Origin: Candidatus Omnitrophota bacterium
Lineage (GTDB): Bacteria > Omnitrophota > Gorgyraeia > Zapsychrales > JANLHA01
Direction of reading: 5' to 3'
DNA: 64,000 nt
Assembly: GCA_020632535.1 (NCBI GenBank)
Contig: JACKFJ010000001.1
Location: forward strand, 346,890 to 410,889
The notes under the pieces are model-generated. The model had not been told where the DNA came from. It saw nothing but the letters and a program-made list of their open reading frames with translations, and did not search any database. Below, one piece after another: positions 26,397 to 45,909 of this stretch; the first letter of the stretch is position 1, and every line of letters begins with the position of its first letter. The position numbers and the translations under genes were made by a program.

Positions 26397-26420
26397 AATA
26401 TTTGTTATGGGAGTACGTGC

Positions 26421-27389: not shown

Positions 27390-27391
27390 CT

Positions 27392-28291: not shown

Positions 28292-28308
28292 GCTATGGAG
28301 GAAGGGTT

Positions 28309-28728: not shown

Positions 28729-28741
28729 CAGGAGGTTGGTT

Positions 28742-29692: not shown

Positions 29693-30250
29693 ATGATTGA
29701 ACATGAAATGCTTTTTCTTGGGCTTTTAGTTGACGGTCCCAAGCATGGGTACGAGATTAAGCGCAAAATTGACGAGGAACTTTTTCCGTTTGTCGGGTTG
29801 AAAGTCAAGTCGATTTACTATCCATTAAAAAAAATGGAGCAGTTGAAATTAATTCACAAAGATGTTGGTCGTGAAGGAAAGTATCCCGAAAAGTTTGTTT
29901 ACAGTATCACGCCGCAGGGTCGTAAAATCTTTGATCATCTAATCACCGATAGTTTTGTTTCGATTGAGCGGCCTTTCTTTAATATTGATCTTTCTTTGTA
30001 TTTTTTGCCTTATGTCGATCAGAAAATTGCGCATAAGAAGTTGCGGGGGCGCGTTATTTTTTTGAAGCGAATCAAGCGTGACTTGACCGTTTTGCATCAC
30101 AAGCACTCGCCGAATCTTGAGCAACATTTGTCCATTATTCTTGAGCATGATTTAGACCTTGTCGAAGCTGAAATCAAGTCTTTGACCCGCCTGTTGGACA
30201 TGCTGCAAGTCCCACCTAAATCTCCCAAATCTGACCGAAGAAGTGCTTGA
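29693..30250 (+). CDS. PadR-family transcriptional regulator (long form with C-terminal domain)
   Basis: LLVDGPKHGYEIKRKI ... SIYYPLKKMEQLKLI ... KFVYSITPQGRK, the winged-helix PadR signature. Confidence 0.8.
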   Translation: MIEHEMLFLGLLVDGPKHGYEIKRKIDEELFPFVGLKVKSIYYPLKKMEQLKLIHKDVGREGKYPEKFVYSITPQGRKIFDHLITDSFVSIERPFFNIDLSLYFLPYVDQKIAHKKLRGRVIFLKRIKRDLTVLHHKHSPNLEQHLSIILEHDLDLVEAEIKSLTRLLDMLQVPPKSPKSDRRSA

Positions 30251-30274
30251 CAACAAAGTATTTTTTACTAAAAT
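30247..30274 (+). promoter_or_regulatory. candidate sigma70-type promoter of the accessory locus, overlapping the PadR stop codon
   Basis: TTGACA (30247-30252; the PadR TGA is 30248-30250), 16 nt spacer, TAAAAT (30269-30274). An AT-rich 150-nt leader follows. Confidence 0.45.
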
Positions 30275-30404: not shown

Positions 30405-31928
30405 ATGAATACATTTGCAATTCTTCAAGAAAATGCCGCAAAGTATGGAAATAAGCCAGCTCTTATTTTTCATGATCATATTGTGACGTTTGCTGATCTT
30501 CCGGCTAAGGTTTTTCGCTTGGCGAATGCTTTGCAGAAGGCGGGATTGCAAAAAGGCGACCGTCTTGGGATTTGTCTTGCGAATGGCCCTGAATTTGTTT
30601 ATGCGTATTTAGCGGGCTTTATTTGTGGCGCGGTGGTTGTTCCGCTTGACTTTATGCTTAAAAGTGATGAGATTTCTTCATGTTTAACGCACTCGGAAGC
30701 AAAAATTTTTATTGCTGCTGATCGTCCTGATCTTAATCTTTCTGTTATTCGTGACACAATTCCAACTCTCAGAGAAACGATTGTTTTTAATCGTGAAAAA
30801 GGCGCGGCCAATCCATTTCAACAATGTCTCGACGCCTCTTTTGAATCACCATTAAAAGTTGAAGTCAATGACACTGATCCTGCTTTAATTATGTATACAT
30901 CGGGAACAACTGGAAGCCCCAAGGGGATTTTGCTTAACTATCAGCATCTAAAGGGTTCGCCGGAAGCGATGAAGTACTTTGTCGATTTAACGGATAAAGA
31001 CATTAAGCTTGCCGCGATTCCCTTTAGTCATGTTGCTGGGTTTATTTATATTCAAAACTGCATCATTTTTGGTATTACGCTCGTGATTATGGACCGTTTT
31101 AACCCGTATGAATTTTTGCGGCTTGTTCAGGAGCATAAGGTGAGCTGTTTTCACATTGTTCCGGCGATGTATACAGCACTTTTGTCGTTAAAACAGATTG
31201 AAAAATTTGATTTGTCATCATTGCGATGGGTTGTGGTTTTTGGCGCTCCAAGCTCGCCTGAAATTATGGAGCGTTTTCATAAATATTGTCCTAACGCGCA
31301 ATTGCTTAATGGTTGGGGCATGACCGAAACTTGTCCGCCTAACACGGTGACACCTTTAGGCAGTCGCAATATCGCCAGCGTCGGCAAACCTTCACCATTA
31401 TCTGAAATCAAGATTGTTGATGAAGAGGATCGTGAAGTTGCCGTGGGGAAAATCGGTGAGATTTTGATACGTGGCTGGATTGTGATGAAGGAATATTATA
31501 AAGATCCCGAAAGCACTGCGCAGATGAAGCGCAATGGGTGGCTTTATACGGGTGATATTGGTCGTAAAGATGAGGAAGGGTTCATTTATATCGTCGGACG
31601 TAAAAAAGAAATGATCAAAGTCGCGGGGCAAATTGTTTACGCGCCAGAAGTTGAGTCTGCTTTTTACAAGCATGAATCTGTTCTTGAAGCCGCAGTTATT
31701 GGTGTGGCTGATGATATGCGCGGGGAGGTCGTTAAAGCTTTTATTGTTCTAAAGCAAGGACAGCACGTCTCTCCGGAAGATTTGCGCTATTTTGCTCGTG
31801 AGCATTTGGCGAATTTTAAAGTTCCACAAACGATCGAAATACGCGGTCAATTGCCTAAGAATCGTACGGGGAAAATTGATAAAGAAATTTTAAAATGCGA
31901 AAGGAAAAGCGATGCAAAATATGCGTAA
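30405..31928 (+). CDS. acyl-CoA synthetase / AMP-dependent ligase (ANL superfamily)
   Basis: MYTSGTTGSPKG (A3), GWGMTE, YTGDIGRKDEEGFIYIVGRKKEMIK and PKNRTGKI (A10 Lys). Confidence 0.85.
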   Translation: MNTFAILQENAAKYGNKPALIFHDHIVTFADLPAKVFRLANALQKAGLQKGDRLGICLANGPEFVYAYLAGFICGAVVVPLDFMLKSDEISSCLTHSEAKIFIAADRPDLNLSVIRDTIPTLRETIVFNREKGAANPFQQCLDASFESPLKVEVNDTDPALIMYTSGTTGSPKGILLNYQHLKGSPEAMKYFVDLTDKDIKLAAIPFSHVAGFIYIQNCIIFGITLVIMDRFNPYEFLRLVQEHKVSCFHIVPAMYTALLSLKQIEKFDLSSLRWVVVFGAPSSPEIMERFHKYCPNAQLLNGWGMTETCPPNTVTPLGSRNIASVGKPSPLSEIKIVDEEDREVAVGKIGEILIRGWIVMKEYYKDPESTAQMKRNGWLYTGDIGRKDEEGFIYIVGRKKEMIKVAGQIVYAPEVESAFYKHESVLEAAVIGVADDMRGEVVKAFIVLKQGQHVSPEDLRYFAREHLANFKVPQTIEIRGQLPKNRTGKIDKEILKCERKSDAKYA

Positions 31929-32676
31929 AGAAATACATATGACAGGTCAAGATTTGATGGGTATGGTGCAATTGCGGCCGGAAGATTTGGGTGGGTATGC
32001 CTTAGTGCCGGGTCCCAAGGAACGCCTTGACGCGATTGTTAAGAAATTAGCAAATCCGGTTAAGAATTTTTCGTTTATGGAATACAACATGTTTACCGGT
32101 GATTATAATGGCACAAAAGTTACCGCGATTAATGGGGGACGTTTTGCGGCGGATACTGGGATCACGACGGAAATCCTTTGCAACGCGCAGGCAAAAGTTA
32201 TGATTCGCTTAGGTAGTTGCGGGGCTTTGCGCGAAGACATTAAGGTCGGAGATTTGATCGTTGTTGAAAGCACATTTAGCGGTGAGGGGGTAACGCCGTA
32301 TTATGTCGATAAAAATTTTAAAACCGTATCCGATAAGAAATTATCTGACGATCTTGTCGGCATCGCTCGAAAATCTGGCAATACTGTTCACGTCGGAAAA
32401 TGCTGGTCAACCGACGCAATTTTGAGGGAAACCCGTGAGAATGTCGGTAAAGCTGTGGCGGAAGGCGCGATTGCGGTTGATATGGTCAGTTCAGTTTTTT
32501 TAACGATTTGCCAACTTTATAAAATACCTGCCGCAGTTATTTTGGCGGTCAGTGATAATGTAATTACGGGTGAAATGGGATTTTTAAACACGGATTATTA
32601 TATGGCAGAAGGAACGATGATCAATGTCGTCTTTGACTTGATTAAACAACGGGAAGCGGCAAAAACGGGAGTTTAG
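31912..32676 (+). CDS. nucleoside phosphorylase, PNP_UDP_1 (hexameric NP-I) family; substrate unknown
   Basis: ALVPGPKERLDAI, FTGDYNGTKVTAINGG, VMIRLGSCGAL, VGDLIV and AIAVDMVSS are collinear with DeoD/Udp/MTA-phosphorylase-type enzymes. Alternative starts at 31921 and 31939. Confidence 0.75.
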   Translation: MQNMRKEIHMTGQDLMGMVQLRPEDLGGYALVPGPKERLDAIVKKLANPVKNFSFMEYNMFTGDYNGTKVTAINGGRFAADTGITTEILCNAQAKVMIRLGSCGALREDIKVGDLIVVESTFSGEGVTPYYVDKNFKTVSDKKLSDDLVGIARKSGNTVHVGKCWSTDAILRETRENVGKAVAEGAIAVDMVSSVFLTICQLYKIPAAVILAVSDNVITGEMGFLNTDYYMAEGTMINVVFDLIKQREAAKTGV

Positions 32677-32679
32677 GTT

Positions 32680-33651
32680 TTGAAAAAAGAGTCACCATTG
32701 TTTTGGCCAGCATATTTAAAGGGCGATATTCTTTTTGTCCTCGATGAGACGCTTGTCCCGAAGCAGTTAAAATACGTCAAGGTCAGGAATATCGACGAAG
32801 CGGTCGCGGTTATTTGTGAAATGAAGACGCGCGCTTTTGGACAGTTTCTTGTTGTTTTGAGTACTTTTCTTTTAGAGTTTAATCGTCAGCCGCAGTTAAA
32901 CGGTGAAGAATTGCTCGAGAAAATCCGCAATGTCGCGCACGCGCTTAATCATAGTCGTCCGACTTTTCCATTTAGTGAAGTCACGAGCGTTGTGGTACAT
33001 TGGGCGCATGGCGCTTTGGATGCAGGGCAGGATGTTCGCGCCATTGTTATAAAAAATGTGAATGGGTATTTGCAGGGGATTCGCCATCGGCGTTTGGATC
33101 GCGTGGCAAAAATTGCGGCAAATATCAAGGATGGTGATAGTGTTTTAACTCATTGTAATGTGAGCGGCGAATTGGCTATGGCCGCCGCGATATGTCGTGA
33201 ACAAAAAAAGGATGTTCAATTTTATTGCACAGAAACCCGTCCTTATTTTCAAGGCGCAAAATTGACATATTGGGAATTAAAGCAAATGGGTGCAGATGTT
33301 ACGCTCGTCGCTGATAATGCGATTGCGACATTGATGGCTGACAAAATGGTCAATAAGGTTATCGTCGGTTCGGATCGCAATTGCGCCAATGGAGACTTTG
33401 CAAATAAAATCGGGACATATCAAATTGCCGTATTGGCAAACGAGTTTAAGGTTCCGATGCTTGTTTTGACGCAACCATCACAAAAAATTAAATCAGGTGC
33501 TGATATTCCCGTTGAGATTCGTGATGAAAGTGAGTTGTTGCAGTTTAATGGTCGCAAAGTTTTTAGCAGTAAGGTCAAAGGACTTTATCCGGGTTTTGAT
33601 GTTGTTCCGCACCATTACGTGAGAAAAGAGATTGCAATCGATGTCCACTGA
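32680..33651 (+). CDS. eIF-2B alpha/beta/delta-like sugar-phosphate isomerase (MtnA / ribose-1,5-bisphosphate isomerase family)
   Basis: VLTHCNVSG, CTETRPYFQGAKLTYWELKQMGADVTLVADNA, VIVGSDRNCANGDFANKIGTYQIA. TTG start. Confidence 0.8.
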   Translation: MKKESPLFWPAYLKGDILFVLDETLVPKQLKYVKVRNIDEAVAVICEMKTRAFGQFLVVLSTFLLEFNRQPQLNGEELLEKIRNVAHALNHSRPTFPFSEVTSVVVHWAHGALDAGQDVRAIVIKNVNGYLQGIRHRRLDRVAKIAANIKDGDSVLTHCNVSGELAMAAAICREQKKDVQFYCTETRPYFQGAKLTYWELKQMGADVTLVADNAIATLMADKMVNKVIVGSDRNCANGDFANKIGTYQIAVLANEFKVPMLVLTQPSQKIKSGADIPVEIRDESELLQFNGRKVFSSKVKGLYPGFDVVPHHYVRKEIAIDVH

Positions 33652-34201
33652 GATTAAAAATGTCACGCTCATTTACGGGGCTTTTAAGGAAGATTTTTTT
33701 ACGGCTTTAAAAAAATGTCAAGTTAAGGATATTGTTGTCCTCGAAGGTCGTCCGACTTTGGAATCGAGTCGCCATGCCGTTTTGAATTTAAAAAAGATTG
33801 GAATTATTCCGACGATTATCGCGGACAATATGGCGGGTTATTTGTTTTCGAAAGGATTGGTTAAAGAAACTTGGTTAGCAAGTCAGGCGGAAGATAAGGC
33901 GGGGGCGATGTGTGAGATTGGGGCTTTGATTTTGGCTGTTTTGGCAAAAAATCATCAAATCCCGGTTTTTACATATGCCGCCGAAAAAAAGCGCAAGCCA
34001 TTGGGCAAGCCGGCCGATTTACAGAAATTTAATGGTCAAAGTGTTGTTACTGGCAAAATCAAAGCGTTCGTACCGTTGATCGAATGGGTTCCGGCAAAAT
34101 ATTTGCGCTCATTGCGAAAAAATGCAGGGCGTAAAGCCATTTCGCCGAGATTGTTGCGTCGTCCGAACGAACTCCTTGCAATAGGAGGTGCAAATGAATA
34201 A
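33641..34201 (+). CDS. short eIF-2B-like paralogue (C-terminal Rossmann-like half only)
   Basis: DIVVLEGRPTLESSRHAVLNLKKIGIIPTIIADNMAGYL ... CEIGALILAVLAKNHQIPVF mirrors the second half of the MtnA family. The N-terminal domain is absent, and both ends overlap the neighbouring genes. Confidence 0.55.
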   Translation: MSTEIKNVTLIYGAFKEDFFTALKKCQVKDIVVLEGRPTLESSRHAVLNLKKIGIIPTIIADNMAGYLFSKGLVKETWLASQAEDKAGAMCEIGALILAVLAKNHQIPVFTYAAEKKRKPLGKPADLQKFNGQSVVTGKIKAFVPLIEWVPAKYLRSLRKNAGRKAISPRLLRRPNELLAIGGANE

Positions 34202-35300
34202 TGACATTATTTTGAGTTTAAAACGAAACATCGAAGCCATTGGACGTTTGCTCTGGGAAAAAGATCTTGTTACAGGTTTGAATGGAAATATCAGCACGCG
34301 TTTGAGTGATGAAAATATTTTAATTACCGCAACCAAAACGTGTTTAGGCCTATTGCAGGAAAATGACATTGTTGAATTAGACTTGGAAGGCAATGTTGTT
34401 GGCGATGGTCAGGCTTCTAGTGAGCGCCTGTTGCATGTCGCAATTTATAAGGCATTTCCAGAAATGAGCGCGGTGGTGCATACGCACACGGCGTATACCA
34501 ATGCTTATTTTCTTGAGAATGACAGTTTGACGCCGCGGATTTTTGAATCCAAATTGTATTTAGGTGATGTCAGCGCGGTCCCGCAATTGACGCCCGCTGT
34601 TTCGGATGTTGGGCCGGTTCTTGAAGCTCTTAAGTCCAACAGTATTGTTGTGTTAAAAAATCATGGTGTTGTCGCGATGGGAAAAGATTTGTTTGATTGT
34701 TTTCTTCTTGTGCAGTGCTTGGAAGAGGCGGTCAAGATTGACGCGATTAGCCGTTTGTATCATCGTTTTACAGATGTCAATGATTTGAAACCTTCTTTGA
34801 AGATCGGGAAACCTGAAGTCGCCAGCAAAAAAGTTGAACCTAAGGTTAAGAAATTGCCAGATTCTTTCTCGCAAGAGGAGCTTGATTCAACTGCAAAGAT
34901 TTCAGAAAGTCCGGTGGTGCCTAAAAAATTTAAACTTTTTTCGGGTGAACAGATTGGTGAAATTGTCCGTTTGGTTAATGCTGATGTGCAAATGCAAGAT
35001 CTCGGCAAGAAGACAAAAATGACGATGTCTTTGGCCGTTAAACTCAATGAGACCGGTGAGGTGTTTTGTTTTCATTTTGAAGATGGGCAGATTATTGAAA
35101 TTGATAAAGACAAAGAGCCCGAATTTTTAATTTCCGCGCCCGAAAATATTTGGCGCGCGGTGTTTAATCGGCAAATTGATCCATTTGTCGCGACAACGCA
35201 AAAGAAAATGCACTTGCAGGGCGATTTCGCTAAGATTTCCAAATGGTATGCGCCGTGCAGTCGTATTTTTGAACTTTGGGCACAGGTTCCAATCGAATAA
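34188..35300 (+). CDS. class II aldolase/adducin-domain protein fused to a C-terminal SCP2-like lipid-binding domain
   Basis: N-terminal part: GLNGNISTRL, ASSERLLHVAIY, AVVHTHT (Zn His ligands), LKNHGVVAMG. C-terminal part: EFLISAPENIWRAVFNRQIDPFVATTQKKMHLQGDFAKISKW resembles the SCP2 C-terminal pattern. Confidence 0.75.
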   Translation: MQMNNDIILSLKRNIEAIGRLLWEKDLVTGLNGNISTRLSDENILITATKTCLGLLQENDIVELDLEGNVVGDGQASSERLLHVAIYKAFPEMSAVVHTHTAYTNAYFLENDSLTPRIFESKLYLGDVSAVPQLTPAVSDVGPVLEALKSNSIVVLKNHGVVAMGKDLFDCFLLVQCLEEAVKIDAISRLYHRFTDVNDLKPSLKIGKPEVASKKVEPKVKKLPDSFSQEELDSTAKISESPVVPKKFKLFSGEQIGEIVRLVNADVQMQDLGKKTKMTMSLAVKLNETGEVFCFHFEDGQIIEIDKDKEPEFLISAPENIWRAVFNRQIDPFVATTQKKMHLQGDFAKISKWYAPCSRIFELWAQVPIE

Positions 35301-36803
35301 ATGACAACGATCAAAACACAAATTCAGGAATTTAAGTTTTCTGTCAACGGCAATTTACGCCATGGCCGTGACGGAAAGTTCTTTGACTGTGTCAATCCTT
35401 CGACGGGTGACGTGTTTGCGAAAGTCGCGGATGCTAGCGTAGAAGACATGAAAGACGCGATCGCCAGCGCGCGTTACGCTTTTGACTGTGGCGAGTGGTC
35501 GGGTTTCAAACCCGAGGACCGTGGAAAATATTTAGCACAATTTGCAAATTTGATCCGGGAGAACGCCAAACTTCTCGCGGAATTAGAAATGCTTTCGACC
35601 GGCAAGACTTTAAAGCACACGACCTTTATCGACGTGCCGACTTGCGCGGATACATTTGAGTATTTTGCTGGTGCCGGTGCTCTTTTAAATGATGTGCCCA
35701 ATCCCGTTTCGGGTCCGGTTAAAAGTGTGACAGCGTATGAGCCGATGGGTGTTGTTGGGAGTATTATTCCGTGGAATTATCCCCTGATTATGCTGGCGTG
35801 GAAAATCGCGCCGGCACTTTTAGCAGGCAATACCGTTGTGTTAAAACCGTCGTCGTTGGCGAGTGTGTCGATCGCAAAATTTGCCGAAATCATTGAGCAA
35901 GCCGGTTTACCCAAGGGCGTTTTAAACATCGTAACAACAAGTCGCCACGAAGTGGCTGAAGTACTCGTGAAAAGTAAAAGTGTTGATATGATTAGTTTTA
36001 CCGGCGGCACCGAGACAGGTAAAGAGATCATGAAAATGTGCAGTGAGACGACAAAAAAACTTTCTTTAGAGCTCGGCGGGAAATCGCCGACAATTATTTT
36101 TGAAGATTGTGACTTAGAAACCGCTGTCGGCGGCACAATGTCCGCGATTTTTATTAATCAAGGACAAATGTGCACGGCGGGTTCACGACTTTTGATTGAT
36201 GAAAAGATTGCCGAGCCATTTTTGCGGCTGCTTGTCGAGAAGACAAAAAGTTTAAAAATCGGCCCCGCGACGAGTTACGAAACGGATTTTGGCCCATTAA
36301 TTAACGTCGCGCATCGCGATAAAGTTTTAGAGTGTATTAAAAAAGGTATCAAAGAAGGCGCGGTGGTTTTGTGCGGCGGTAAAATTCCCGAATCGGAAGA
36401 ATTAAAAAGTGGTGCGTACATTGAACCGACGATTTTAAGCAAAGTCAATAATCAAATGACCGTCGCGCGGGAAGAAATTTTCGGACCGGTTTTGGTGGTC
36501 ATGAAATTTAAGGATGAGGACGAAGCTGTTTTGGTCGCCAATGATTCCTCATACGGTTTGGCGGCGTCAGTATGGAGTAAGGATTTAGTAAAGGCAAATC
36601 GTGTCGCGAAAAAATTGCAGTGCGGCACTGTGTGGATCAATACATACGGCGCATTTTTTAATGAAGCCCCTTTTGGGGGATATAAGCAAAGTGGATTTGG
36701 GCGGCAATTGGGTCTTGAGGGTTTGTTGGCCTACACACAATCCAAACATATCTGCATTGATCAAACTCCGGGAGGTCGTCCGCTTGTTGCGGCATGGTTC
36801 TGA
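35301..36803 (+). CDS. NAD(P)+-dependent aldehyde dehydrogenase
   Basis: PWNYPL, FTGGTETGK, LELGGKSP (catalytic Glu), NQGQMCTAGSR (catalytic Cys) and EEIFGPV. Confidence 0.9.
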   Translation: MTTIKTQIQEFKFSVNGNLRHGRDGKFFDCVNPSTGDVFAKVADASVEDMKDAIASARYAFDCGEWSGFKPEDRGKYLAQFANLIRENAKLLAELEMLSTGKTLKHTTFIDVPTCADTFEYFAGAGALLNDVPNPVSGPVKSVTAYEPMGVVGSIIPWNYPLIMLAWKIAPALLAGNTVVLKPSSLASVSIAKFAEIIEQAGLPKGVLNIVTTSRHEVAEVLVKSKSVDMISFTGGTETGKEIMKMCSETTKKLSLELGGKSPTIIFEDCDLETAVGGTMSAIFINQGQMCTAGSRLLIDEKIAEPFLRLLVEKTKSLKIGPATSYETDFGPLINVAHRDKVLECIKKGIKEGAVVLCGGKIPESEELKSGAYIEPTILSKVNNQMTVAREEIFGPVLVVMKFKDEDEAVLVANDSSYGLAASVWSKDLVKANRVAKKLQCGTVWINTYGAFFNEAPFGGYKQSGFGRQLGLEGLLAYTQSKHICIDQTPGGRPLVAAWF

Positions 36804-36900: not shown

Positions 36901-38388
36901 ATGAAAGTTCTATTTTTAACACCACCGCTAAAAGCTTGGGATTCACATGGAGATCACAAAGCCGCCAATCAAATGCACGCGCAGCTTGCCGCCTATTTAC
37001 GTGAAAAAAAATTAGCTGAGGTTGCTGCTTTGGATTGCCGCGCCTTGGACATGACATGGGAAGACATGATTAAGGAAGTTGCTAAAATCAAGCCGGGTCT
37101 CGTTTTTGTCGGAGAGCTTTTGCATTCGACATGCGGGGCGGCCGTTATTGGTTATTTTAACGATGCTTTAAAGTTAATAAAAGAGTACGACAAAAATATT
37201 AAAACAGTGGCTGGCGGACTTTGGTATTCGGGCGACTATGATCGGCAAATGCGTTTAAATCCGTGGATCGATTATATCATGATCGGTGAAGCCGAATTGA
37301 CATTAGAGGATCTCTTGATCAATTTTCGTGATCAGAAAAAAGATGAAAAGGACATTCCCGGCCTTGTTCATCGCGATGCTCAGGGAACGATCGTAGTTGG
37401 GCCGCATCGGGACATGATTCCTGATCTCAATGTTTTGCCGATGCCAGCTTATGATCTTTTTCCGATGGAAAAATACGTTGGCCATACGTATTGGAAACCA
37501 TTCGCGGAGCTTATGACATCGCGCGGCTGTCCGGGCAAATGCCATTTTTGTTACGAATGGGCTTTGTATGATTCGCGCACGGCCGCAAAAGATTTTACAT
37601 CATGGCGCGGATTAAAAGGTAAGCGCATTGTTGATGAATTAGATCTTCTCGAAAAAACTTACGGTGTGACAACAATCGTCTTTCAAGATGACGCCTTTAA
37701 CACCGACACCGCGGCGATGATTGAGTTCTGCGAAGAAAAATTAAAACGTGGTAATAAAATTGACTGGGTGTGTTTAGGTCGTGCGGATCAATGGATTCTT
37801 CAGCAAGACATTTTGCCACTCATGAAAAAGGCGGGACTATTTCTTGCCTTGACCGGCGTTGAGGTTGAGGACGATTTGAGTTTACACAAAAGTGGAAAAG
37901 GGATAACGATTGCGCAGATTAAAAAAACCGTCGATATCTTGCGACAAAACGATATTGGATCCGTCGGAACAGTTTTGATTGGGCTTAAGGAGGACACCGA
38001 AGCAAAAATTAAAGAGCGTTTGCGAATTGCTGATGAAATTGACCCCGATGTGTTCGCGCTTGATTATTTAACACCAGTTCCTAATTCACCGGACTGGAGA
38101 TACGGGATTAAAAAGGGTTGGTTTGATCCCGAAAAAATTGATCTAAAGACTTGGGATTTTCAACATCCGGTTATCCCGACTGACTTTTTAACAGTTGAAG
38201 AAGTCGGACGTTTAGGGGCGTGGTGTATGCGTGAATATTATTCCAAGCCAGAGAGAATTCATCGCATTTTTTCCAGCAACTATGACGAAAAAGTCAAGTT
38301 ATGCGTTAAGGACTTCATGGCGAATATTGCCAAATGGGAAGCTAACTCGCGCATGCCAGCGACAACAGGCATCGCCGTAAATAAGTAA
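36901..38388 (+). CDS. B12-binding-domain radical SAM enzyme (class B rSAM)
   Basis: N-terminal cobalamin-binding-like domain (MKVLFLTPP...). Radical SAM cluster motif SRGCPGKCHFCYEW (CxxxCxxC). RBS aaggag. Confidence 0.85.
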   Translation: MKVLFLTPPLKAWDSHGDHKAANQMHAQLAAYLREKKLAEVAALDCRALDMTWEDMIKEVAKIKPGLVFVGELLHSTCGAAVIGYFNDALKLIKEYDKNIKTVAGGLWYSGDYDRQMRLNPWIDYIMIGEAELTLEDLLINFRDQKKDEKDIPGLVHRDAQGTIVVGPHRDMIPDLNVLPMPAYDLFPMEKYVGHTYWKPFAELMTSRGCPGKCHFCYEWALYDSRTAAKDFTSWRGLKGKRIVDELDLLEKTYGVTTIVFQDDAFNTDTAAMIEFCEEKLKRGNKIDWVCLGRADQWILQQDILPLMKKAGLFLALTGVEVEDDLSLHKSGKGITIAQIKKTVDILRQNDIGSVGTVLIGLKEDTEAKIKERLRIADEIDPDVFALDYLTPVPNSPDWRYGIKKGWFDPEKIDLKTWDFQHPVIPTDFLTVEEVGRLGAWCMREYYSKPERIHRIFSSNYDEKVKLCVKDFMANIAKWEANSRMPATTGIAVNK

Positions 38389-38398
38389 AGGGAATGTA

Positions 38399-38686
38399 AT
38401 GACAACGACATTTATCAAAATGCATTGGGATCCAAAAACCGAAGAATTGTTTTTGGCCACGATCAAAAAGATTCCGCTTTTTCATCGGGACATCGCCCGC
38501 GAAGTTGTGGAAAAAAAGGCACAGATTAACGCGCAGGCGCGAGGATCGACTTCGGTCGAAGAAAGCGATGTCGTCGATGCGTTTTTCTCGGAAGTTCCCA
38601 AAGCATTCTATAGTTTAATGGTCCGAATTTTAGATGAGGCAGGTTTAGATTATGGCAAGCATATTTCCGCGCAAGGCAAAAAGTAA
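38399..38686 (+). CDS. small PCP_red-like (protochlorophyllide-reductase C-terminal-domain-like) protein
   Basis: W-x5-E-x8-KIPLFHRDIAREVVEKKAQINAQARGSTSVEESDV follows the pattern I recall for PF08369 proteins that accompany BchE-type rSAM enzymes. Confidence 0.45.
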   Translation: MTTTFIKMHWDPKTEELFLATIKKIPLFHRDIAREVVEKKAQINAQARGSTSVEESDVVDAFFSEVPKAFYSLMVRILDEAGLDYGKHISAQGKK

Positions 38687-39143
38687 AGACACGATTCTTC
38701 ACGAGTTTATGTTTTTGGAAGCACCAATTGAGGCTGTTTCCGCAGAACTGATCGCATGGGGCGAATCTACTTGGTGGCCGCAAGATTCATTGTGGAAATA
38801 TATTCGTCAGACCGACGGACCTGTCGCGGTTGGGACGCAATATGTAATTAAGATTAACAAAAAGTCCGCACCGGATTGGGCCGCGGAAGTCACTCAGCTT
38901 TTACCAAATCGTGTGATTGAAAGGACTTTTACCAAGGGTCTTTTTAAAGGTTTTGAACGCATCATGATGGAAGAGCGCGCCAACGGAACGCGTGTTGATT
39001 ATGAATTGCATTTTCAAATTCGCGGTCCGTTAAATCTGATTCTTTGGCCTTTGGTTTTGCGAAAGCAGTATGTCTCAACGATTAAGACAACACTTGACGC
39101 GTTGCGAAATTTTTTAATTGCGGAAGCCAAAAAGCATTTGTAA
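38652..39143 (+). CDS. SRPBCC/START-fold protein (polyketide_cyc2-like); start uncertain (alternative ATG 38709)
   Basis: About 150 aa in the alpha/beta pattern of the SRPBCC superfamily (IEAPIEAV...W...TQYVIKI...RVIERT...VDYELHF). Start 38652 overlaps the upstream gene by 35 nt. Confidence 0.55.
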   Translation: MASIFPRKAKSKDTILHEFMFLEAPIEAVSAELIAWGESTWWPQDSLWKYIRQTDGPVAVGTQYVIKINKKSAPDWAAEVTQLLPNRVIERTFTKGLFKGFERIMMEERANGTRVDYELHFQIRGPLNLILWPLVLRKQYVSTIKTTLDALRNFLIAEAKKHL

Positions 39144-39160
39144 AGTTGGAGTCATTCAAA

Positions 39161-40159
39161 ATGAAAATTGCTGTGATCGGAGCCGGAGCCATTGGATCAG
39201 TTGTCGCCGCGGGATTGTTCAAATCCAACGTCGACGTTCTGCTGGTTGGACGGGCTGATCAAGTCGCAGCCATTAAGGAACGGGGACTGACAATAAAGCG
39301 TTTTGATGGCACTGAAACGCTTAATGTTCCGGTAGCAGAGCGCTTGGATCGTGAATTTGATCTGGTGATTTTTACGACAAAAACGCAGGATGTTGATGAT
39401 GCGTACATGCAAAATTCAGAGTTTATGGAAAATTGTCTGGTGTTGGCGACACAAAACGGGGTGCAGGGAGACAATATTTTAAGTCCACATTTTTTCCCGG
39501 AACGCGTGATAAGCAGTATTGTGATGTTTGGCGCGACCTATGTTAAGCCCGGCGAAGTCACTTACAATTTTCCGGGTGACTGGATTATTGGCAAACGTTT
39601 TGTGATGAATGATATTAAAGTCCATGAGATTGCGGACATTTTAAAGAAAAGTTTTTCGGTTGAAGTGACTGACAATATATTAGGGATGAAATGGTTAAAG
39701 CTTTTCGTTAATTTTAATAATTGTATTCCGGCCTTGATCGGCAAGTCGATGCAGGAAACTTTTACCGATATGGATTTGTGCCGCTTGAGCGTCTCACTTT
39801 TAAAGGAAGCCTTGCCGATTGTACAGAGCGCTAATATCAAACTTGTGTCATTGCCGCAATTTCCTGTTGAGCGGGTGCAAGGCTTAGCGGCCATGCCATT
39901 AGAACAAGGCGCTGGCATTATGAATAAGACATTGACGGGATTAAGCAAAGAGCCGCTTTATGGGTCAATTCTACAAAGTATTTTGCGTGGCAAGACCAGT
40001 GAAATTGATTTTATTAATGGGGAAGTTGTGGCAATCGCATCAGGAATGAGAATGGATGCTCCACTTAATCGTAAAGTTGTGCGTATGGTTCACACCGTTG
40101 AAGAGACGGGAAAGTTTTTTTCAGCAGAAGAAGTTAAAAAGGAATTTAGTTTGGTCTAA
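39161..40159 (+). CDS. 2-dehydropantoate 2-reductase family (ApbA/PanE-like) NAD(P)H oxidoreductase
   Basis: MKIAVIGAGAIGS Rossmann start. LVLATQNG, KLFVNFNNCI and EIDFINGEV match the KPR family. Confidence 0.8.
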   Translation: MKIAVIGAGAIGSVVAAGLFKSNVDVLLVGRADQVAAIKERGLTIKRFDGTETLNVPVAERLDREFDLVIFTTKTQDVDDAYMQNSEFMENCLVLATQNGVQGDNILSPHFFPERVISSIVMFGATYVKPGEVTYNFPGDWIIGKRFVMNDIKVHEIADILKKSFSVEVTDNILGMKWLKLFVNFNNCIPALIGKSMQETFTDMDLCRLSVSLLKEALPIVQSANIKLVSLPQFPVERVQGLAAMPLEQGAGIMNKTLTGLSKEPLYGSILQSILRGKTSEIDFINGEVVAIASGMRMDAPLNRKVVRMVHTVEETGKFFSAEEVKKEFSLV

Positions 40160-40251: not shown

Positions 40252-40270
40252 CTGAGGGATGGAGTTTTAT

Positions 40271-41527
40271 ATGGCACGACGAGTCGTAGTTACTGGTATC
40301 GGAATTGTTTCACCCAATGGCGTCGGTAAAGAAGCCTGTTGGAAAAGTATGATCAATGGCGTGTCGGCGGTTAAACGTGTGACCGAGTTTGATGTGACAC
40401 CTTTTAATACCAAAATTGCCGCGCAGGTCAGAGATTTTGATCCTGTCATGTTGGGCTTGACGTGGGAAGAAAGTATGCGCATGGATCGCTATGTGCAGTT
40501 TGCGGTTGTCAGCGCGCGTATGGCCCTAGAAGATTCCCATTTGAATTTGAGCAAAGTTAATCCCCAGCGAATTGGTGTTTCTCTTGCCAACGCGATTTGC
40601 GGGACCAAATATATGGAAGAGGAATTTGCGCTTGTGACCGACAGCGGCAAAAATCCAATTAATCCCGCGATTGTTCGCCCTGATCTTTATGACGCGGCGA
40701 TGTTTAATACACCGTCGAGCGAAATTTCCGCGAAGTATGGACTTAAAGGTGTTTGCAATACGATCTCGACGGGTTGTACTGCGGGAACTGATTCGGTAGG
40801 GTTTTCGTTTGAAACGATTATGGATGGCGATGCGGATATTATGGTGACCGGTGCGGCCGAAGCCCCGATTACCCCGATCACATTTGGCGCGTTTGATACC
40901 GTCAATGTTCTTTCAGCGATGAATGAATTTCCAGAAAAAGCGTCTCGTCCTTTTGATGCGAAGCGCAATGGTTTTGTCATTTCTGAAGGCGCAGGTGTTC
41001 TCATTCTCGAAGAATTACAACATGCCAAGAAGCGTGGCGCACGGATTTATTGTGAAGTCGTTGGTTTTGGGACGACCAACAATGCTTTTCATATGACGGA
41101 TTTACCTCCGGATGGCGACGCGATGGCCGATTGCATTAATATTGCGATGGATGAAGCAAAAGTCAAGCCACAAGACATCGATTATCTTAATGCCCACGGT
41201 TCCTCGACGAGGCAGAATGATGTTTTTGAAACGAGCGCGTATAAAATGGCTTTAGGAGATCACGCGTACAAAATTCCAATCAGTTCGCTTAAGTCGATGA
41301 TTGGCCATCCCTTGGCTGGCGCCAATGGTTTGGAACTTGCCGTTGGATGTATGATTTTTGAACGTAATATTTTGCCGCCGACAATCAATCAAGAATTTCC
41401 AGATCCACAATGTGATTTAGATTATATCCCCAACGTGAGTCGTGAAAAGAAAGTTAATGTCATGTTAAAAACTTCGAGCGGTTTTTCGGGGATCCACTCG
41501 GCCATGGTGTTAAGAAGATTTGAATAA
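40271..41527 (+). CDS. type II polyketide synthase ketosynthase alpha (KS-alpha)
   Basis: RRVVVTGIGIVSPNG. TISTGCTAGTDSVG with the Cys codon at 40775-40777. EAPITPITFGAFD, ASRPFD, FHMTD, NAHGSST, PDPQCDLDYIP and SSGFSGIHSAMVLRR. Collinear with actinorhodin-type KS-alpha as I remember it. Confidence 0.9.
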   Translation: MARRVVVTGIGIVSPNGVGKEACWKSMINGVSAVKRVTEFDVTPFNTKIAAQVRDFDPVMLGLTWEESMRMDRYVQFAVVSARMALEDSHLNLSKVNPQRIGVSLANAICGTKYMEEEFALVTDSGKNPINPAIVRPDLYDAAMFNTPSSEISAKYGLKGVCNTISTGCTAGTDSVGFSFETIMDGDADIMVTGAAEAPITPITFGAFDTVNVLSAMNEFPEKASRPFDAKRNGFVISEGAGVLILEELQHAKKRGARIYCEVVGFGTTNNAFHMTDLPPDGDAMADCINIAMDEAKVKPQDIDYLNAHGSSTRQNDVFETSAYKMALGDHAYKIPISSLKSMIGHPLAGANGLELAVGCMIFERNILPPTINQEFPDPQCDLDYIPNVSREKKVNVMLKTSSGFSGIHSAMVLRRFE

Positions 41528-41561: not shown

Positions 41562-42794
41562 ATGCAGCCTATTGCGATTACCGGTATCGGTTTAGTTACA
41601 CCCAGCGGGATTGATAAAAGAAAGTTTTGGTCGAATATTGTCCATGGCCGATCCGTCATTAAGAAAATTGATCGTTTTGACGCATCATTATATGAATCTC
41701 ATATTGCCGGACAAGTGCATGAATTAGACGCATACAGCAATGTCTCCTCGCGGCTTTTAAAAAAGATCGATTTATTTTCGCATATGGGTTTGGTCGCCTC
41801 CGAAATCGCGATCACTGACGCTAAGCTAGATCTTGCGCAAGAGAACTTGAAACGCGCTGGTATTTTTATGGGTAATGCCATTGGCGGTTGGCTCTACGCC
41901 GAAACCGAATTGCGTGATTTGTATCTAGAGGGAAGAGAAGGCGTAAGCCCATTTATGGCCTCCGCGTGGTTTCCCGCCGCGCCGCAAGGTCAAATTTCCA
42001 TTCATTACGGCATTAAGGGCTACAGCAAAACCATCGTCGCTGATCGAGCGAGTTCTCTGATGGCCATCGGCTATGGCGCAAAAAATTTATTGCGCGGCAA
42101 AAACGACTTTATTCTTGCCGGCGGCATGGAGGCGCCTGTCACACCGTACGCGCTTTTGTGTTGCAACACATCGGGGTGTCTTTCTTCTAATAATGACGAA
42201 GCCGAAACCGCGTATCGGCCGTTTGATAAACAACGTGACGGGTTTGCCATTGCTGAGGGCGCGGGAATTTTGATTTTAGAACCACAAGAGCGTGTCAAAT
42301 CGCGCGGTGCACATGTGTATGGCAATATTATTGGTTTTGCGACGACGACAGATGGTGTGAATCGTATTGAACCTGCGACGGACGGTGTGGAATTGGCCCG
42401 CGCGATCAAAATGGCTTTGGATGATGCCGGCCTTGCGCAGAAAGATATTGATTATATTTGTGCCGACGGTGCGGGCGGACTTTTAAGCGATATTTCTGAA
42501 ACCAAGGCGATCAAATTAGTCTTTGGTGATTACGCTAAAAAGATCCCAATTTCAGCGCCCAAAGCCGTTTTCGGAAATATGTTAGGCGCGTGCGGCGCGC
42601 TTGATGTGATAACGACATTGTTGGCGATGGAGCATGACCTTATTCCACCGACGATTAATCTCAAAATGCCTGACCCACAATGTGATTTAGATTATGTTCC
42701 CAATGAAGCGCGTGCCAAAGTTATAAAAAATGCGATGGTCATCAATCGCGGCCGCGGCGGCATCAATTGCGTTTTAGTTTTGCAGAAACCTTAA
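41562..42794 (+). CDS. type II PKS ketosynthase beta / chain-length factor-like subunit (catalytic triad absent)
   Basis: KS fold (IAITGIGLVTPSG, AWFPAAPQGQISIHYG). TIVADRASSLMAIG replaces the Cys motif, with Arg codon CGA at 42045-42047. TTDGV replaces HMTD and CADGAGG replaces NAHGSST. PDPQCDLDYVP is retained. Confidence 0.85.
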   Translation: MQPIAITGIGLVTPSGIDKRKFWSNIVHGRSVIKKIDRFDASLYESHIAGQVHELDAYSNVSSRLLKKIDLFSHMGLVASEIAITDAKLDLAQENLKRAGIFMGNAIGGWLYAETELRDLYLEGREGVSPFMASAWFPAAPQGQISIHYGIKGYSKTIVADRASSLMAIGYGAKNLLRGKNDFILAGGMEAPVTPYALLCCNTSGCLSSNNDEAETAYRPFDKQRDGFAIAEGAGILILEPQERVKSRGAHVYGNIIGFATTTDGVNRIEPATDGVELARAIKMALDDAGLAQKDIDYICADGAGGLLSDISETKAIKLVFGDYAKKIPISAPKAVFGNMLGACGALDVITTLLAMEHDLIPPTINLKMPDPQCDLDYVPNEARAKVIKNAMVINRGRGGINCVLVLQKP

Positions 42795-42884: not shown

Positions 42885-43115
42885 ATGTCAGTTGAAGAGC
42901 AAGTCAAAGCTGTTTTTAAAAAAGTCCTTGATATCAATCCATCCGAAATCAAACCCAATGAACAGTTAGGCGCGTCATTAGGCATTGATTCAACGGAATT
43001 AGTTGAGATTTCCGTCGGGATCAAAAAGGAAATTGGAGTTGCGTTAGCGGATAGCGAACTTAAAAAATCACACACATTTAACGAAATCATCAAAATCATT
43101 GAGTCAAAGAAATAA
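42885..43115 (+). CDS. acyl carrier protein (PKS-associated)
   Basis: 76 aa, four-helix pattern, phosphopantetheine-attachment motif LGIDSTELVE. RBS aggagga. Confidence 0.85.
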   Translation: MSVEEQVKAVFKKVLDINPSEIKPNEQLGASLGIDSTELVEISVGIKKEIGVALADSELKKSHTFNEIIKIIESKK

Positions 43116-43245: not shown

Positions 43246-44043
43246 ATGATCATCGACCTTTCCTTACCTATCGACGACAAACTCGTCGAAACCCATGATG
43301 CCAAAATCGACCGCATTTCGCATGCACAAGGTGTTGAGCATTTTAATTGGGTTGTTATGAAAAATCAGCCCGGCGGTCAAGAACGTTTTGACAAAGGCGA
43401 GCGCGTCGCGACCAAAGAAGAAATTCCTGACGGCGAAATGTTATCACTCGAAATCGTTCATTCATCCGTTCATATGGGTAGTCACGTTGACGCGCCGTTT
43501 CATTATGGCAGCACATGCGAAGGCAAGCCTGCCAAGCAAATTATGGATGTTCCGCTTGAGTGGTGTCTTGGTCCCGGTGTTGTTTTAGATTTTACCCACA
43601 TTCAATTTCCCGCCGCAATTGGCAAAAAAGATGTACAAGACGCTTTAGCAAAAATCAATTACAAACTAAAACCGATGGATATTGTTTTGCTTTATACTGG
43701 CGGTGACAAGTTGCTCGGCACAGATGATTATGTTAATAAATATGTCGGTTGCACAGTAGACGCGATTGAATATTTGCTGGATCAGGGTATCAAGATGATG
43801 GGTGTGGACACGATTGGTTTAGATCGGCCATGCTTTTTGATGTTTAAGGAATTTTTGACGACGAAAGATAAGAGTAAGATTTGGCCATGCCATTTCTTGG
43901 GTCGTCGTAGGGAATATTGTCACATGGAGCGCTTGGGAAATTTGGGCGCGATACCCAAACCATTTGGTTTTACGGTTTCTTGTTTGCCGGTTAAAGTTAG
44001 AAATGCCGGAGCGGGATGGAGCCGCGTTGTCGCGATTGTTTAA
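43246..44043 (+). CDS. cyclase-family protein (PF04199; kynurenine-formamidase / putative polyketide cyclase fold)
   Basis: The family motif HxGTHxDxPxH is present as HMGSHVDAPFH. Also MGVDTIGLD. Confidence 0.75.
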   Translation: MIIDLSLPIDDKLVETHDAKIDRISHAQGVEHFNWVVMKNQPGGQERFDKGERVATKEEIPDGEMLSLEIVHSSVHMGSHVDAPFHYGSTCEGKPAKQIMDVPLEWCLGPGVVLDFTHIQFPAAIGKKDVQDALAKINYKLKPMDIVLLYTGGDKLLGTDDYVNKYVGCTVDAIEYLLDQGIKMMGVDTIGLDRPCFLMFKEFLTTKDKSKIWPCHFLGRRREYCHMERLGNLGAIPKPFGFTVSCLPVKVRNAGAGWSRVVAIV

Positions 44044-45451: not shown

Positions 45452-45491
45452 TTATGGGACACACACGTAATTCAATTGTTATCAGTGCACC
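45452..45491 (+). repeat. 40-bp direct repeat, downstream copy (authentic 5' end of the aromatase/cyclase gene)
   Basis: Identical to 44868-44907. Confidence 0.9.
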
Positions 45492-45909
45492 GTATAGTTT
45501 GGTTTTCGACATTTCCAATAAGATTGAACGTTGGACAGAATTGTTCGGCGATGAATATGTGAGCGCCGAAGTTTTGGAACGCAAGGACAATGAAATTGTT
45601 TTTCGCTTAACCGACGACGAAAAAAAGTCGTGGGTTTCCAAACGATGGCTTTTTAAGGAACACAATCTCGCGTATGCGTCACGGTATGAGCCGATGTTTC
45701 CGTTTCGCTATATGAAAATTATCTGGCTGTATAACGAAACTTCCGAAGGCACGGAAATGATTTGGATGCAGGATTTTGCGATGGATGAAAAATTTACCAA
45801 ATTCACAGAGACACAGATTGAAGGCTTTATTAATGAGCATTCACAGCATAATATGAAAATATTTAAAAAGGTCATTGAGGCTGAGGCTAAAGTAACAGTG
45901 GACAAATAG
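45454..45909 (+). CDS. SRPBCC aromatase/cyclase (TcmN N-terminal-domain / WhiE-ORFVI-like ARO/CYC)
   Basis: TRNSIVISAPYSLVFDISNKIERWTELFGDEY ... SWVSKR ... FRYMKIIWLY ... GTEMIWMQDFAMDE parallels the TcmN ARO/CYC sequence as I recall it ([30 protein letters not shown] ... MRWVQEFDM). Confidence 0.8.
   Translation: MGHTRNSIVISAPYSLVFDISNKIERWTELFGDEYVSAEVLERKDNEIVFRLTDDEKKSWVSKRWLFKEHNLAYASRYEPMFPFRYMKIIWLYNETSEGTEMIWMQDFAMDEKFTKFTETQIEGFINEHSQHNMKIFKKVIEAEAKVTVDK

Follow-up and report, generated by a model that had tools for sequence, protein, structure and literature searches.

We analyzed a stretch of 64,000 nucleotides from a Candidatus Omnitrophota genome (contig JACKFJ010000001.1 of assembly GCA_020632535.1, forward-strand positions 346,890 to 410,889; hereafter, the window), which has a GC content of ~40–45% and carries nearly all of its genes on the + strand. 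At 30405–36803 lies a row of genes for an acyl-CoA ligase, a nucleoside phosphorylase, two proteins of the IF-2B family, an aldolase and an aldehyde dehydrogenase (ALDH), followed by a gene for a radical S-adenosylmethionine (SAM) enzyme. We propose, at a probability of roughly 0.45, that 30405–36803 is one pathway module: an extended dihydroxyacetone phosphate (DHAP) shunt, fixed within a cluster for a ketosynthase (KS), a chain-length factor (CLF) and an acyl carrier protein (ACP), whose acyl product is probably reused as a primer. The genes, with their Pfam or NCBIfam assignments, are as follows.

30405..31928, + strand: FadD-type AMP-forming acyl-CoA/ACP ligase (Pfam AMP-binding)
31912..32676, + strand: DeoD-type (hexameric NP-I) phosphorylase, 254 aa (PNP_UDP_1, E = 3e-31)
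32680..33651, + strand: MtnA-like isomerase, predicted to convert an aldose-1-phosphate to a ketose-1-phosphate, 323 aa (IF-2B, E = 3e-50); contains TETRPYFQGAKLT
33632..34201, + strand: IF2Bs, a short IF-2B paralog, 189 aa (Pfam, E = 2e-11)
34188..35300, + strand: class II aldolase–SCP2 fusion, 370 aa (Aldolase_II, E = 2e-38); contains VVHTHT
35301..36803, + strand: hydrolytic NAD(P)+-dependent ALDH, 500 aa (Aldedh, E = 1e-173); contains ELGGKSP and QMCTAGSR
36901..38388, + strand: B12-binding radical SAM enzyme, BchE/HpnJ-like (Pfam/NCBIfam)

The ligase and phosphorylase genes overlap by 17 nt, those of the isomerase and IF2Bs by 20 nt and those of IF2Bs and the aldolase by 14 nt, and the aldolase and ALDH genes abut without overlap (35300/35301). 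The 97-nt gap between the ALDH stop and the start of the B12-radical SAM gene contains an AAGGAG ribosome-binding site (Shine–Dalgarno) and no hairpin. Five + strand open reading frames (ORFs) lie at 31912–36803, four of which had been named in a preliminary description of this DNA; the four genes, their sequence motifs, their overlaps and the distance to the radical SAM gene were all recovered in ORF and Pfam analyses. The four enzymes were thus correctly described, but IF2Bs (33632–34201) and the fusion of the aldolase to SCP2 had been overlooked.

In the reaction sequence that we propose, the phosphorylase would split a 5'-modified purine nucleoside into its base and a pentose-1-phosphate; the likeliest nucleoside would be 5'-deoxyadenosine or a close analog arising from SAM-consuming steps, with methylthioadenosine (MTA) as the next candidate. 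The isomerase, perhaps assisted by the catalytically dead half-paralog IF2Bs, would form the ketose-1-phosphate, which the Zn-dependent class II aldolase would cleave to DHAP and an aldehyde, X-CH2-CHO. The ALDH would then oxidize the aldehyde to the acid and the FadD-type ligase would convert the acid to a thioester, which most likely re-enters the KS/CLF/ACP lipid or polyketide pathway as a primer. The B12-radical SAM enzyme would be a frequent substrate source or a tailoring enzyme, and not a required component. Gene content, conserved catalytic residues, synteny, the fusions of ligase to phosphorylase and of aldolase to radical SAM enzyme, and the losses of the radical SAM gene are observed, as set out below; which way the flux runs, which nucleoside is used and what becomes of the thioester we infer from them.

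Enzymes of the module and their predicted substrates

The phosphorylase scored 87–89 bits with the Udp and DeoD models of NCBIfam and 51 bits with the MTA/S-adenosylhomocysteine nucleosidase model, in each case below the cutoff, and no MtnP or MtnK model of NCBIfam matched it; by these scores it is neither the MtnP of the DHAP shunt nor part of the alternative pair MtnN and MtnK. A profile built from 31 orthologs and compared with PDB sequences matched Bacillus DeoD-type purine/adenosine phosphorylases best (101 bits, full length), followed at 84 bits by the hexameric MTA phosphorylase of S. solfataricus (1jds). The phosphorylase that had been predicted is therefore present, but it is of the DeoD type and not of the MtnP type; because a DeoD-like hexameric MTA phosphorylase exists, it may nevertheless act on MTA. 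Five residues are the same in all 72 sequences compared: Arg38, Arg99 and Ser102 of the phosphate site, Asp215, which occupies the position of DeoD Asp204 (Asn in the mutant chain 3uay), and Met18. In HMMER alignments, Met18 falls on a His of uridine phosphorylase that binds the ribose 5'-OH, and its replacement by Met would fit a 5'-deoxy or other non-hydroxyl substituent. In one species the phosphorylase gene is tandemly duplicated (L033:6918-8475), the copies being 68% and 52% identical to the window protein.

The isomerase passes the cutoff of the eIF-2B_rel/MtnA subfamily model TIGR00524 (188.6 against 185.85), scores 204 against a cutoff of 279 with the MtnA equivalog, and reaches only 141 against 314 with the ribose-1,5-bisphosphate (R15P) isomerase model TIGR00511. 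Its best PDB sequence is B. subtilis MtnA (2yrf, 143 bits), with R15P isomerases at ~100 bits, and the catalytic Cys159 (HCN motif) and Asp232 (GSDR..NGD) are invariant, as befits the MtnA-type isomerase of a DHAP shunt. The R15P isomerase of P. horikoshii binds the 5-phosphate through Cys135-x-Ser137-Lys138 (PMC5789824); the corresponding segment of the window isomerase reads Cys-Asn-Val-Ser. Judged by its sequence, the isomerase is MtnA-like and not R15P-isomerase-like, in keeping with the preliminary description. A route from AMP through R15P to ribulose-1,5-bisphosphate, which a ligase–phosphorylase fusion (see below) had suggested, was rejected on these hidden Markov model (HMM) scores and on the missing 5-phosphate-binding residues, and, of the further enzymes that a pentose bisphosphate/AMP pathway calls for, the window showed neither RuBisCO nor an NP-II phosphorylase, a kinase or a HAD phosphatase. 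Nor did the window ORFs of at least 150 aa include an MtnC, MtnD, MtnW or MtnX family member of classical methionine salvage. The absence of enolase-phosphatase, dioxygenase and RuBisCO genes from the window, as first described, was confirmed by a Pfam scan of its ORFs.

IF2Bs corresponds to the C-terminal half of the isomerase only, matching its residues 170–315 at 28% identity. Both catalytic residues, Cys and Asp, are missing from it, E-x-R-P is retained, and its orthologs share a mean identity of only ~45%.

The aldolase–SCP2 fusion consists of an aldolase domain (residues 1–197), a disordered linker (198–244) and an SCP2 domain (~245–370), and AlphaFold predicts two confident domains. The invariant Glu79/His98/His100/His159 reproduce, with equal spacing, the Glu73/His92/His94/His155 pattern of FucA. 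SCP2 is the most conserved portion of the fusion, with the invariant motif DPFVATTQKKM..GDFA..S.WYAPCSR.F..W. A Foldseek search of the AlphaFold2 aldolase model against the PDB returned FucA, YgbL, Aq_1979 and DrdA (6btd), each at 22–30% identity, could not separate FucA, DrdA, YgbL and MtnB-like structures, and was dominated by aldolase matches that masked the SCP2 part. Among NCBIfam models, FucA_Meth, the PRK08660 "aldolase" and OtnC ranked highest, none of them clearing an equivalog cutoff. A grouping of the aldolase with MtnB dehydratases, which would speak for methionine salvage, was not observed: MtnB models cover nothing beyond residues 16–105 in the N-terminal half and score 64 bits where their cutoffs are 137–226, the nearest standalone aldolases are FucA_Meth/PRK08660-like, and MtnB matches none of these at E ≤ 1e-25. 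When 1.84 billion representatives were searched with the aldolase, only 30 proteins matched at E ≤ 1e-30, and an SCP2 domain was present in 27 of the best 150 representatives, down to about 26–47% identity.

These enzymes bear on a different substrate, a purine ribonucleoside, from which ribose-1-phosphate, ribulose-1-phosphate and then DHAP and glycolaldehyde would be formed, with glycolate giving a glycolyl primer and hence omega-hydroxy chains; such a route would resemble the haloarchaeal non-carboxylating pentose bisphosphate pathway minus its kinase and phosphatase. The proximity of the phosphorylase to Bacillus DeoD/adenosine phosphorylases, a weak match of the aldolase to the haloarchaeal ribulose-1-phosphate aldolase model (RU1PAldHalo) and the pentose enzymes found in other architectures of the cluster (a DeoC-family aldolase and PGM/PMM) are consistent with it. 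We consider it improbable, however: the ribulose-1-phosphate aldolase match, at 56.6, falls short of the cutoff of 300, the 5'-OH-binding His of Udp is an invariant Met, there is no kinase or phosphatase, the 5-phosphate motif of R15P isomerases is altered as described above, and we know of no report of an MtnA-type enzyme isomerizing ribose-1-phosphate directly.

Oxidation and activation of the aldehyde are the steps that the module adds. In the ALDH, Cys291 and the general base Glu257 are invariant, as in irreversible hydrolytic ALDHs. The ligase best matches the PRK06187 long-chain ligase among NCBIfam models (456 bits against a cutoff of 476), and in the PDB it comes closest to FadD5, FadD13 and feruloyl-CoA synthetase rather than to acetyl-CoA synthetase. 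Ligase and phosphorylase occupy a single reading frame in two separate branches (L035:6161-8494, 778 aa; L041:4856-7222, 789 aa), with the internal Met of the phosphorylase kept in both joint ORFs, so that separate initiation is possible. The aldolase–SCP2 gene adjoins an AMP-ligase gene even at loci without phosphorylase and isomerase; in one locus (L102) a tungsten aldehyde:ferredoxin oxidoreductase (AOR) is encoded beside the ALDH, and in another (L089) a molybdenum aldehyde oxidase, together with aldolase–SCP2 and ligase, takes the place of the ALDH. The suggestion that ALDH and ligase turn the aldehyde into a thioester is strongly backed by the joint ORFs, by these alternative oxidases and by the presence of the ligase at 44 of 49 well-covered loci (see below). 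What is conserved, as far as gene content and sequence tell, is the logic by which a sugar-1-phosphate passes through an aldolase to an aldehyde, then to an acid by means of an ALDH, an AOR or a molybdenum oxidase, and finally to an AMP-ligase.

The same enzymes could in principle run in reverse, the SCP2-aldolase joining DHAP to a lipid aldehyde, and isomerase and phosphorylase building a lipid-linked pentose or nucleoside head group. Class II DHAP aldolases favor condensation, and SCP2 together with the MMPL, LolA-like and LpxL-like acyltransferase proteins of related clusters suggests an envelope lipid product. We regard this direction as very improbable, given that Glu257 of the ALDH is typical of irreversible hydrolytic enzymes, that other clusters bear aldehyde-oxidizing enzymes (AOR, molybdenum oxidase) and not reductases, that there is no acyl-CoA/ACP reductase to supply the aldehyde, and that the forward order has two biochemical precedents.

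Conservation of the module within KS/CLF/ACP clusters

The module stands within a longer block of + strand genes that begins with a PadR-family regulator gene and whose downstream end is bounded by an rRNA operon. Its remaining members are the following; a gene for a glutaredoxin-domain protein also belongs to the cluster, downstream of the PF04199 cyclase gene.

29693..30250, + strand: PadR-family regulator (Pfam PadR), which opens the conserved block and is present at 40/49 well-covered loci
38399..38686, + strand: small conserved protein with weak DUF2621/PCP_red similarity
38652..39143, + strand: accessory protein, weakly SRPBCC-like
39146..40159, + strand: ApbA/PanE-family NAD(P)H ketoreductase
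40259..41527, + strand: FabF-like KS with active-site Cys
41562..42794, + strand: CLF-like KS paralog, Arg replacing the active-site Cys
42885..43115, + strand: ACP
43246..44043, + strand: PF04199 cyclase/arylformamidase fold with HxGxHxDxPxH motif, ~83% mean identity among orthologs
45454..45909, + strand: SRPBCC (Polyketide_cyc2) protein
46091..47245, + strand: major facilitator superfamily (MFS) transporter
47258..48031, + strand: FabG-like short-chain dehydrogenase/reductase (SDR) ketoreductase
48351..49253, + strand: Amidohydro_2 family protein, the last gene before the rRNA operon, found in permuted clusters as well

The cluster combines a Cys-His-His KS, a Cys-less paralog and a discrete ACP: the active-site Cys173 of the KS is present in 56/56 sequences, its counterpart in the CLF is Arg in 48/48, and the ACP carries the DS motif. 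KS and CLF match FabF models best (458 and 392 bits), with 180 and 202 bits for the polyketide synthase (PKS) KS model. In classical type II PKSs, a Gln of the CLF serves decarboxylative priming; with Arg at this position, the CLF has no Gln for that purpose, and the aromatic-PKS-type combination of KS-alpha and Gln-bearing CLF was not found.

The window aldolase matches, at 100% identity, a protein of a Candidatus Omnitrophica metagenome-assembled genome. We scanned one genome per GTDB species for the aldolase–SCP2 fusion and found it in 146 genomes, out of more than 700 Omnitrophota species, which is a lower bound because two exact peptide motifs were required. The best 80 of the 146 matched genomes are all Omnitrophota metagenome-assembled genomes, and the module order recurs in 80/80 of these species-level genomes at ~55–75% identity, an arrangement far beyond chance. 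By BLAST synteny, essentially every locus carries, in this order, genes for a lipoprotein, PadR, ligase, phosphorylase, isomerase, IF2Bs, aldolase–SCP2, ALDH, frequently the radical SAM enzyme, and the small protein, and continues downstream with a variably present SRPBCC gene, ApbA, KS, CLF, ACP and cyclase, in some cases followed by SRPBCC, MFS and SDR genes. Co-occurrence was counted at the 49 loci whose sequence extends ≥9 kb to both sides of the aldolase gene. Isomerase and ALDH were each encoded at 48/49 of these loci, phosphorylase, IF2Bs and CLF at 46/49, KS and ACP at 45/49, ligase and cyclase at 44/49, and the B12-radical SAM enzyme at 43/49 (88%).

More distant loci were gathered in a metagenome scan with a 7-sequence subset of distant fusions, a 25-sequence alignment being too diverse, and architectures were drawn from the contexts of SCP2-bearing relatives together with 80 metagenome loci. 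Architecture A is that of the window and includes a 47%-identity relative (L090) in which the order is kept between other flanks. In architecture B (L121, L160, L170) the window genes appear in permuted order, often without IF2Bs: KS, CLF, ACP, cyclase, SRPBCC, MFS, SDR, radical SAM, Amidohydro_2, phosphorylase, isomerase, aldolase–SCP2, ALDH and ligase. These loci led us to drop the idea that IF2Bs and the aldolase form an invariant pair. In architecture C, the genes for phosphorylase, isomerase, IF2Bs, aldolase–SCP2 and ALDH are flanked by MMPL, LolA-like/DUF1329 and DUF1302 genes, and the B12-radical SAM gene lies upstream or between the two IF-2B genes; two of these loci (L098 and L102) have a gene for a CrtI-like oxidoreductase directly 5' of the phosphorylase gene, with a radical SAM gene nearby in L098, and L102 additionally encodes CLF, ACP and cyclase beside its tungsten AOR. 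Architecture D consists of MMPL, LolA-like, DUF1302, zinc alcohol dehydrogenase, DeoC-family aldolase, aldolase–SCP2, ligase, PGM/PMM and LpxL-like acyltransferase genes. Two loci (L089 and L091) fall outside architectures A–D. Wherever the module was found, it was part of a cluster for making or transporting lipid-like molecules.

Radical SAM enzymes and the fate of the acyl product

The B12-radical SAM enzyme, with ~78% mean identity where present, is weakly BchE/HpnJ-like by NCBIfam, its HpnJ score lying far below the cutoff; an anammox ladderane cluster as the origin of the window was rejected, because the window is Omnitrophota DNA and the enzyme scores 65.8 with the ladderane-type model, whose cutoff is 360. 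Of 60 Omnitrophota loci that cover the site of its gene, 8 do not contain the gene; in these, the residual gap is usually ≤277 nt and no ORF of ≥200 aa with a CxxxCxxC motif was found. On the ALDH tree these loci represent at least 5 separate lineages, in which the rest of the cluster is intact. The position of the gene also varies among architectures. In addition, a 41%-identity relative of the aldolase (P0282, L091:1579-3252) carries, in place of SCP2, a fused radical SAM/SPASM domain that is NirJ/AhbD-like; its gene follows those of the isomerase and IF2Bs and precedes a molybdopterin oxidoreductase gene, and an aldolase–radical SAM/SPASM fusion occurs in two independent sequences (P0282 and P0149). 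Separately, a 694-aa protein on a 3.4-kb ENA contig (P0156) joins a radical SAM-like N-terminus to an aldolase–SCP2 that is missing its first ~55 residues; it could be a true fusion or a chimera of assembly or gene calling.

The link between the module and radical SAM enzymes is real, though not obligatory. Being frequent and independent of position, and involving two unrelated enzyme classes and one fusion, it fits a shared substrate of the 5'-deoxyadenosine type. The coupling to the radical SAM enzyme put forward in the preliminary description thus holds in this looser form (43/49 loci, varying positions, aldolase fusion), but a by-product disposal module dedicated to the neighboring enzyme does not agree with the loss of that enzyme from at least 5 lineages with otherwise intact clusters. 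The ties of the module to the KS/CLF/ACP cluster and to lipid carriers are closer than its tie to the radical SAM enzyme.

In its strict form, that proposal would be ordinary housekeeping salvage of 5'-deoxyadenosine or MTA that merely adjoins biosynthetic genes, disposing of the radical SAM by-product without its carbon being used by the pathway. The enzyme order agrees with the DHAP shunt, a radical SAM gene is present in 88% of well-covered loci, the aldolase–radical SAM fusion fits such a role, and a stoichiometric lipid-modifying radical SAM enzyme would make much inhibitory 5'-deoxyadenosine. This reading is nonetheless rather unlikely. The module persists at loci without any radical SAM gene, moves with KS/CLF/ACP through permutations of gene order, and includes a ligase fusion and an SCP2 domain that salvage would leave unexplained. 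Canonical MTA phosphorylase, moreover, is reported in 70–99% of the rest of the class Gorgyraeia, except for one small order without it (bioRxiv 10.64898/2026.06.07.730766); because that enzyme is so widespread while the cluster occurs in 146 of more than 700 species, even taken as a lower bound, the module is not general housekeeping. With the radical SAM link real but not obligatory, a pathway-integrated extended DHAP shunt is therefore the best reading.

Several points weigh against this extended shunt. The module enzymes miss every equivalog-level HMM cutoff, and the hints at 5'-deoxyadenosine or MTA as the substrate are indirect: Met18, the recurrent association with radical SAM genes and the aldolase–radical SAM fusion. 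The third phosphate-site Arg of DeoD and Udp is Met56 in the window phosphorylase, which makes phosphorolysis, as opposed to hydrolysis, less than certain. The absence of the radical SAM gene from 8/60 loci means that a strict tie between producer and consumer fails, and priming of KS/CLF by the ligase product is something we purely infer. Finally, X = H gives plain acetate, which leaves SCP2 and the FadD-type ligase unexplained; the ligase has Gly where acetyl-CoA synthetase has a Trp that limits its pocket.

Since X = H would leave SCP2, the lipid exporters and the long-chain-type ligase without explanation, an adenosylated lipid may instead be the substrate. In that case, the radical SAM enzyme would attach the 5'-deoxyadenosyl radical at a C=C bond in a lipid intermediate or unsaturated acyl chain, much as HpnH does with diploptene and MqnE with its enol ether. 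The phosphorylase would remove adenine, isomerase and SCP2-aldolase would release C1'–C3' as DHAP and leave lipid-CH2-CHO, and the ALDH and long-chain-type ligase would yield a lipid acid and thioester two carbons longer, a two-carbon homologation. Such a route would account for SCP2 being the most conserved part of the aldolase fusion, for the FadD5/FadD13-like ligase, for the lipid exporters and carriers (MMPL, LolA-like/DUF1329, DUF1302) that flank the module in other architectures, and for the CrtI-like desaturase gene that both L098 and L102 have directly before the gene of the phosphorylase, near a radical SAM gene in the case of L098; the aldolase–radical SAM fusion and the Met18 that replaces a 5'-OH-binding His would fit as well. 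We still judge it unlikely, as the radical SAM gene is missing from at least 5 Omnitrophota lineages with otherwise intact clusters, and the radical SAM enzymes concerned come from two classes that are not related to each other, B12-binding and SPASM, and resemble neither HpnH nor MqnE, a shared by-product being the simpler explanation for the association. The HpnG model, too, scores 49.8 against a cutoff of 187, and we know of no precedent for an adenosylating radical SAM enzyme of the B12 type.

Relation to known systems and surroundings of the cluster

The DHAP shunt, as published, proceeds in the order phosphorylase, isomerase, aldolase (PMC12632272). The likeness of the window genes to this shunt, noted from the outset, holds for both the enzyme series and the gene order: the steps of MtnP or MtnN+MtnK, MtnA and Ald2, and of DrdK/DrdI/DrdA in Bacillus thuringiensis, recur in the same order, here with contiguous genes, and DrdA (6btd) is among the structural matches of the window aldolase. 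The window differs in having a DeoD hexameric phosphorylase instead of MtnP, a dead half-MtnA paralog and an aldolase–SCP2 fusion, in adding a dedicated ALDH and a FadD-type ligase that would carry the aldehyde to a thioester, and in lying in a KS/CLF/ACP cluster, not in a catabolic or regulated salvage operon.

The fluoroacetate pathway of Streptomyces cattleya and Nocardia brasiliensis (FlA, FlB, 5-fluoro-5-deoxyribose-1-phosphate (5-FDRP) isomerase, fuculose-type aldolase and fluoroacetaldehyde dehydrogenase) follows the same four-step logic from a 5'-substituted 5'-deoxyadenosine to X-CH2-COOH: starting from 5'-fluoro-5'-deoxyadenosine (5'-FDA), the published route to fluoroacetate runs through phosphorylase, isomerase, aldolase and ALDH (PMC3999930). 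FlB is an MTAP-type phosphorylase and in this respect differs from the DeoD type of the window. The aldolase and ALDH genes of fluoroacetate producers lie outside the fl/nob clusters, whereas in the window all the genes adjoin one another, with a ligase gene in addition. None of the window ORFs, those of the cluster included, matched a fluorinase, chlorinase or DUF62 family of Pfam.

Type II PKS and aryl-polyene clusters likewise place an AMP-ligase beside KS/CLF/ACP and have a CLF without the active-site Cys; EncN of enterocin biosynthesis and the adenylating enzyme of aryl polyenes are starter-unit ligases of KS/CLF clusters. Aryl-polyene clusters also share lipid export components (MMPL, LolA-like) with the related architectures of the window module. 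Unlike in these systems, the window KS and CLF are FabF-like, the CLF has Arg and not Gln, and a nucleoside would be the origin of the presumed starter acid, which has not been described before. In hopanoid (HpnH/HpnG/HpnJ) and futalosine (MqnE/MqnB) biosynthesis, a PNP_UDP_1-family enzyme strips the base from a radical SAM adenosyl adduct and some ribose carbons stay in the product, which, with the weak BchE/HpnJ likeness of the window radical SAM enzyme, makes for a resemblance. The window, however, has no HpnH- or MqnE-type enzyme, and its proteins score far below the cutoffs of the HpnG, HpnJ and futalosine hydrolase models; conversely, those pathways have no isomerase and aldolase acting on ribose, both of which are encoded here.

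A KS–CLF catalog lists Candidatus Omnitrophica and gives nothing further (PMC10132072), and unexplained antiSMASH "ladderane" clusters have been reported in Omnitrophota metagenome-assembled genomes (PMC9902471). Our literature search found no description of the module, of the aldolase–SCP2 fusion or of the half-MtnA paralog. If the extended-shunt reading is true, a lipid or polyketide assembly line in uncultured Omnitrophota and related metagenomic lineages has co-opted a salvage route for a SAM by-product as a fixed component that co-evolves with it, complete with a lipid-binding aldolase fusion, a dead isomerase paralog and an activation step, which would supply a rationale for the "ladderane-like" and KS–CLF clusters of those reports. 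It would also be a natural nucleoside-to-acyl-thioester cassette, one that could feed halogenated or thio-substituted non-acetate primers into fatty-acid or polyketide synthases, and a concrete system in which to study how cells deal with 5'-deoxyadenosine that is formed stoichiometrically during lipid modification. Were an adenosylated lipid the substrate instead, the module would represent a radical route of two-carbon homologation, not known before, by which unusual envelope lipids are built. The enzymes are small and soluble and thus amenable to direct in vitro tests.

The best sigma-70-like promoter match of the region lies between the PadR and ligase genes and is a consensus match only:

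30247..30274, + strand: TTGACA-16-TAAAAT, matching 11/12 consensus positions

Promoter and terminator consensus scans gave site counts at chance level, with the promoter count not above the shuffled expectation. Upstream of the cluster, 25842–29691 encodes HldD (ADP-heptose 6-epimerase, which clears its NCBIfam cutoff), two lipoproteins (hyp169 and hyp184), a poorly conserved transmembrane and coiled-coil protein (hyp299) and a CBS-pair protein, a set that is syntenic in many Omnitrophota (L001-L084) and hints at an envelope-related neighborhood. The hypothetical proteins among them were considered as fluorinase/DUF62-like SAM enzymes and rejected, being envelope genes outside the pathway. The remainder of the window is housekeeping and includes a separate plsX-fabH-fabD operon; a 1171-aa ORF at 617–4132 had no Pfam match at E ≤ 1e-4.

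Within the cluster, a ParE-family toxin gene (45123–45425, Pfam E = 3e-15) is inserted between the glutaredoxin-like and SRPBCC genes, and a small ORF upstream of it (region 44950–45425) is a possible antitoxin. Another small ORF nearby (44574–44852) was matched in related loci by L010 only, the toxin gene itself not having been searched there. A protein with a PC4/p15-like single-stranded-DNA-binding fold is encoded between the SDR and Amidohydro_2 genes (48114–48347, Pfam E = 1e-12). In the rRNA operon, the 23S rRNA match at 51657–55327 extends over 3671 nt as compared with a 2925-nt model, and the extra sequence, which holds a LAGLIDADG homing-endonuclease ORF (53761–54318, Pfam E = 3e-21), is probably an intron or intervening element.

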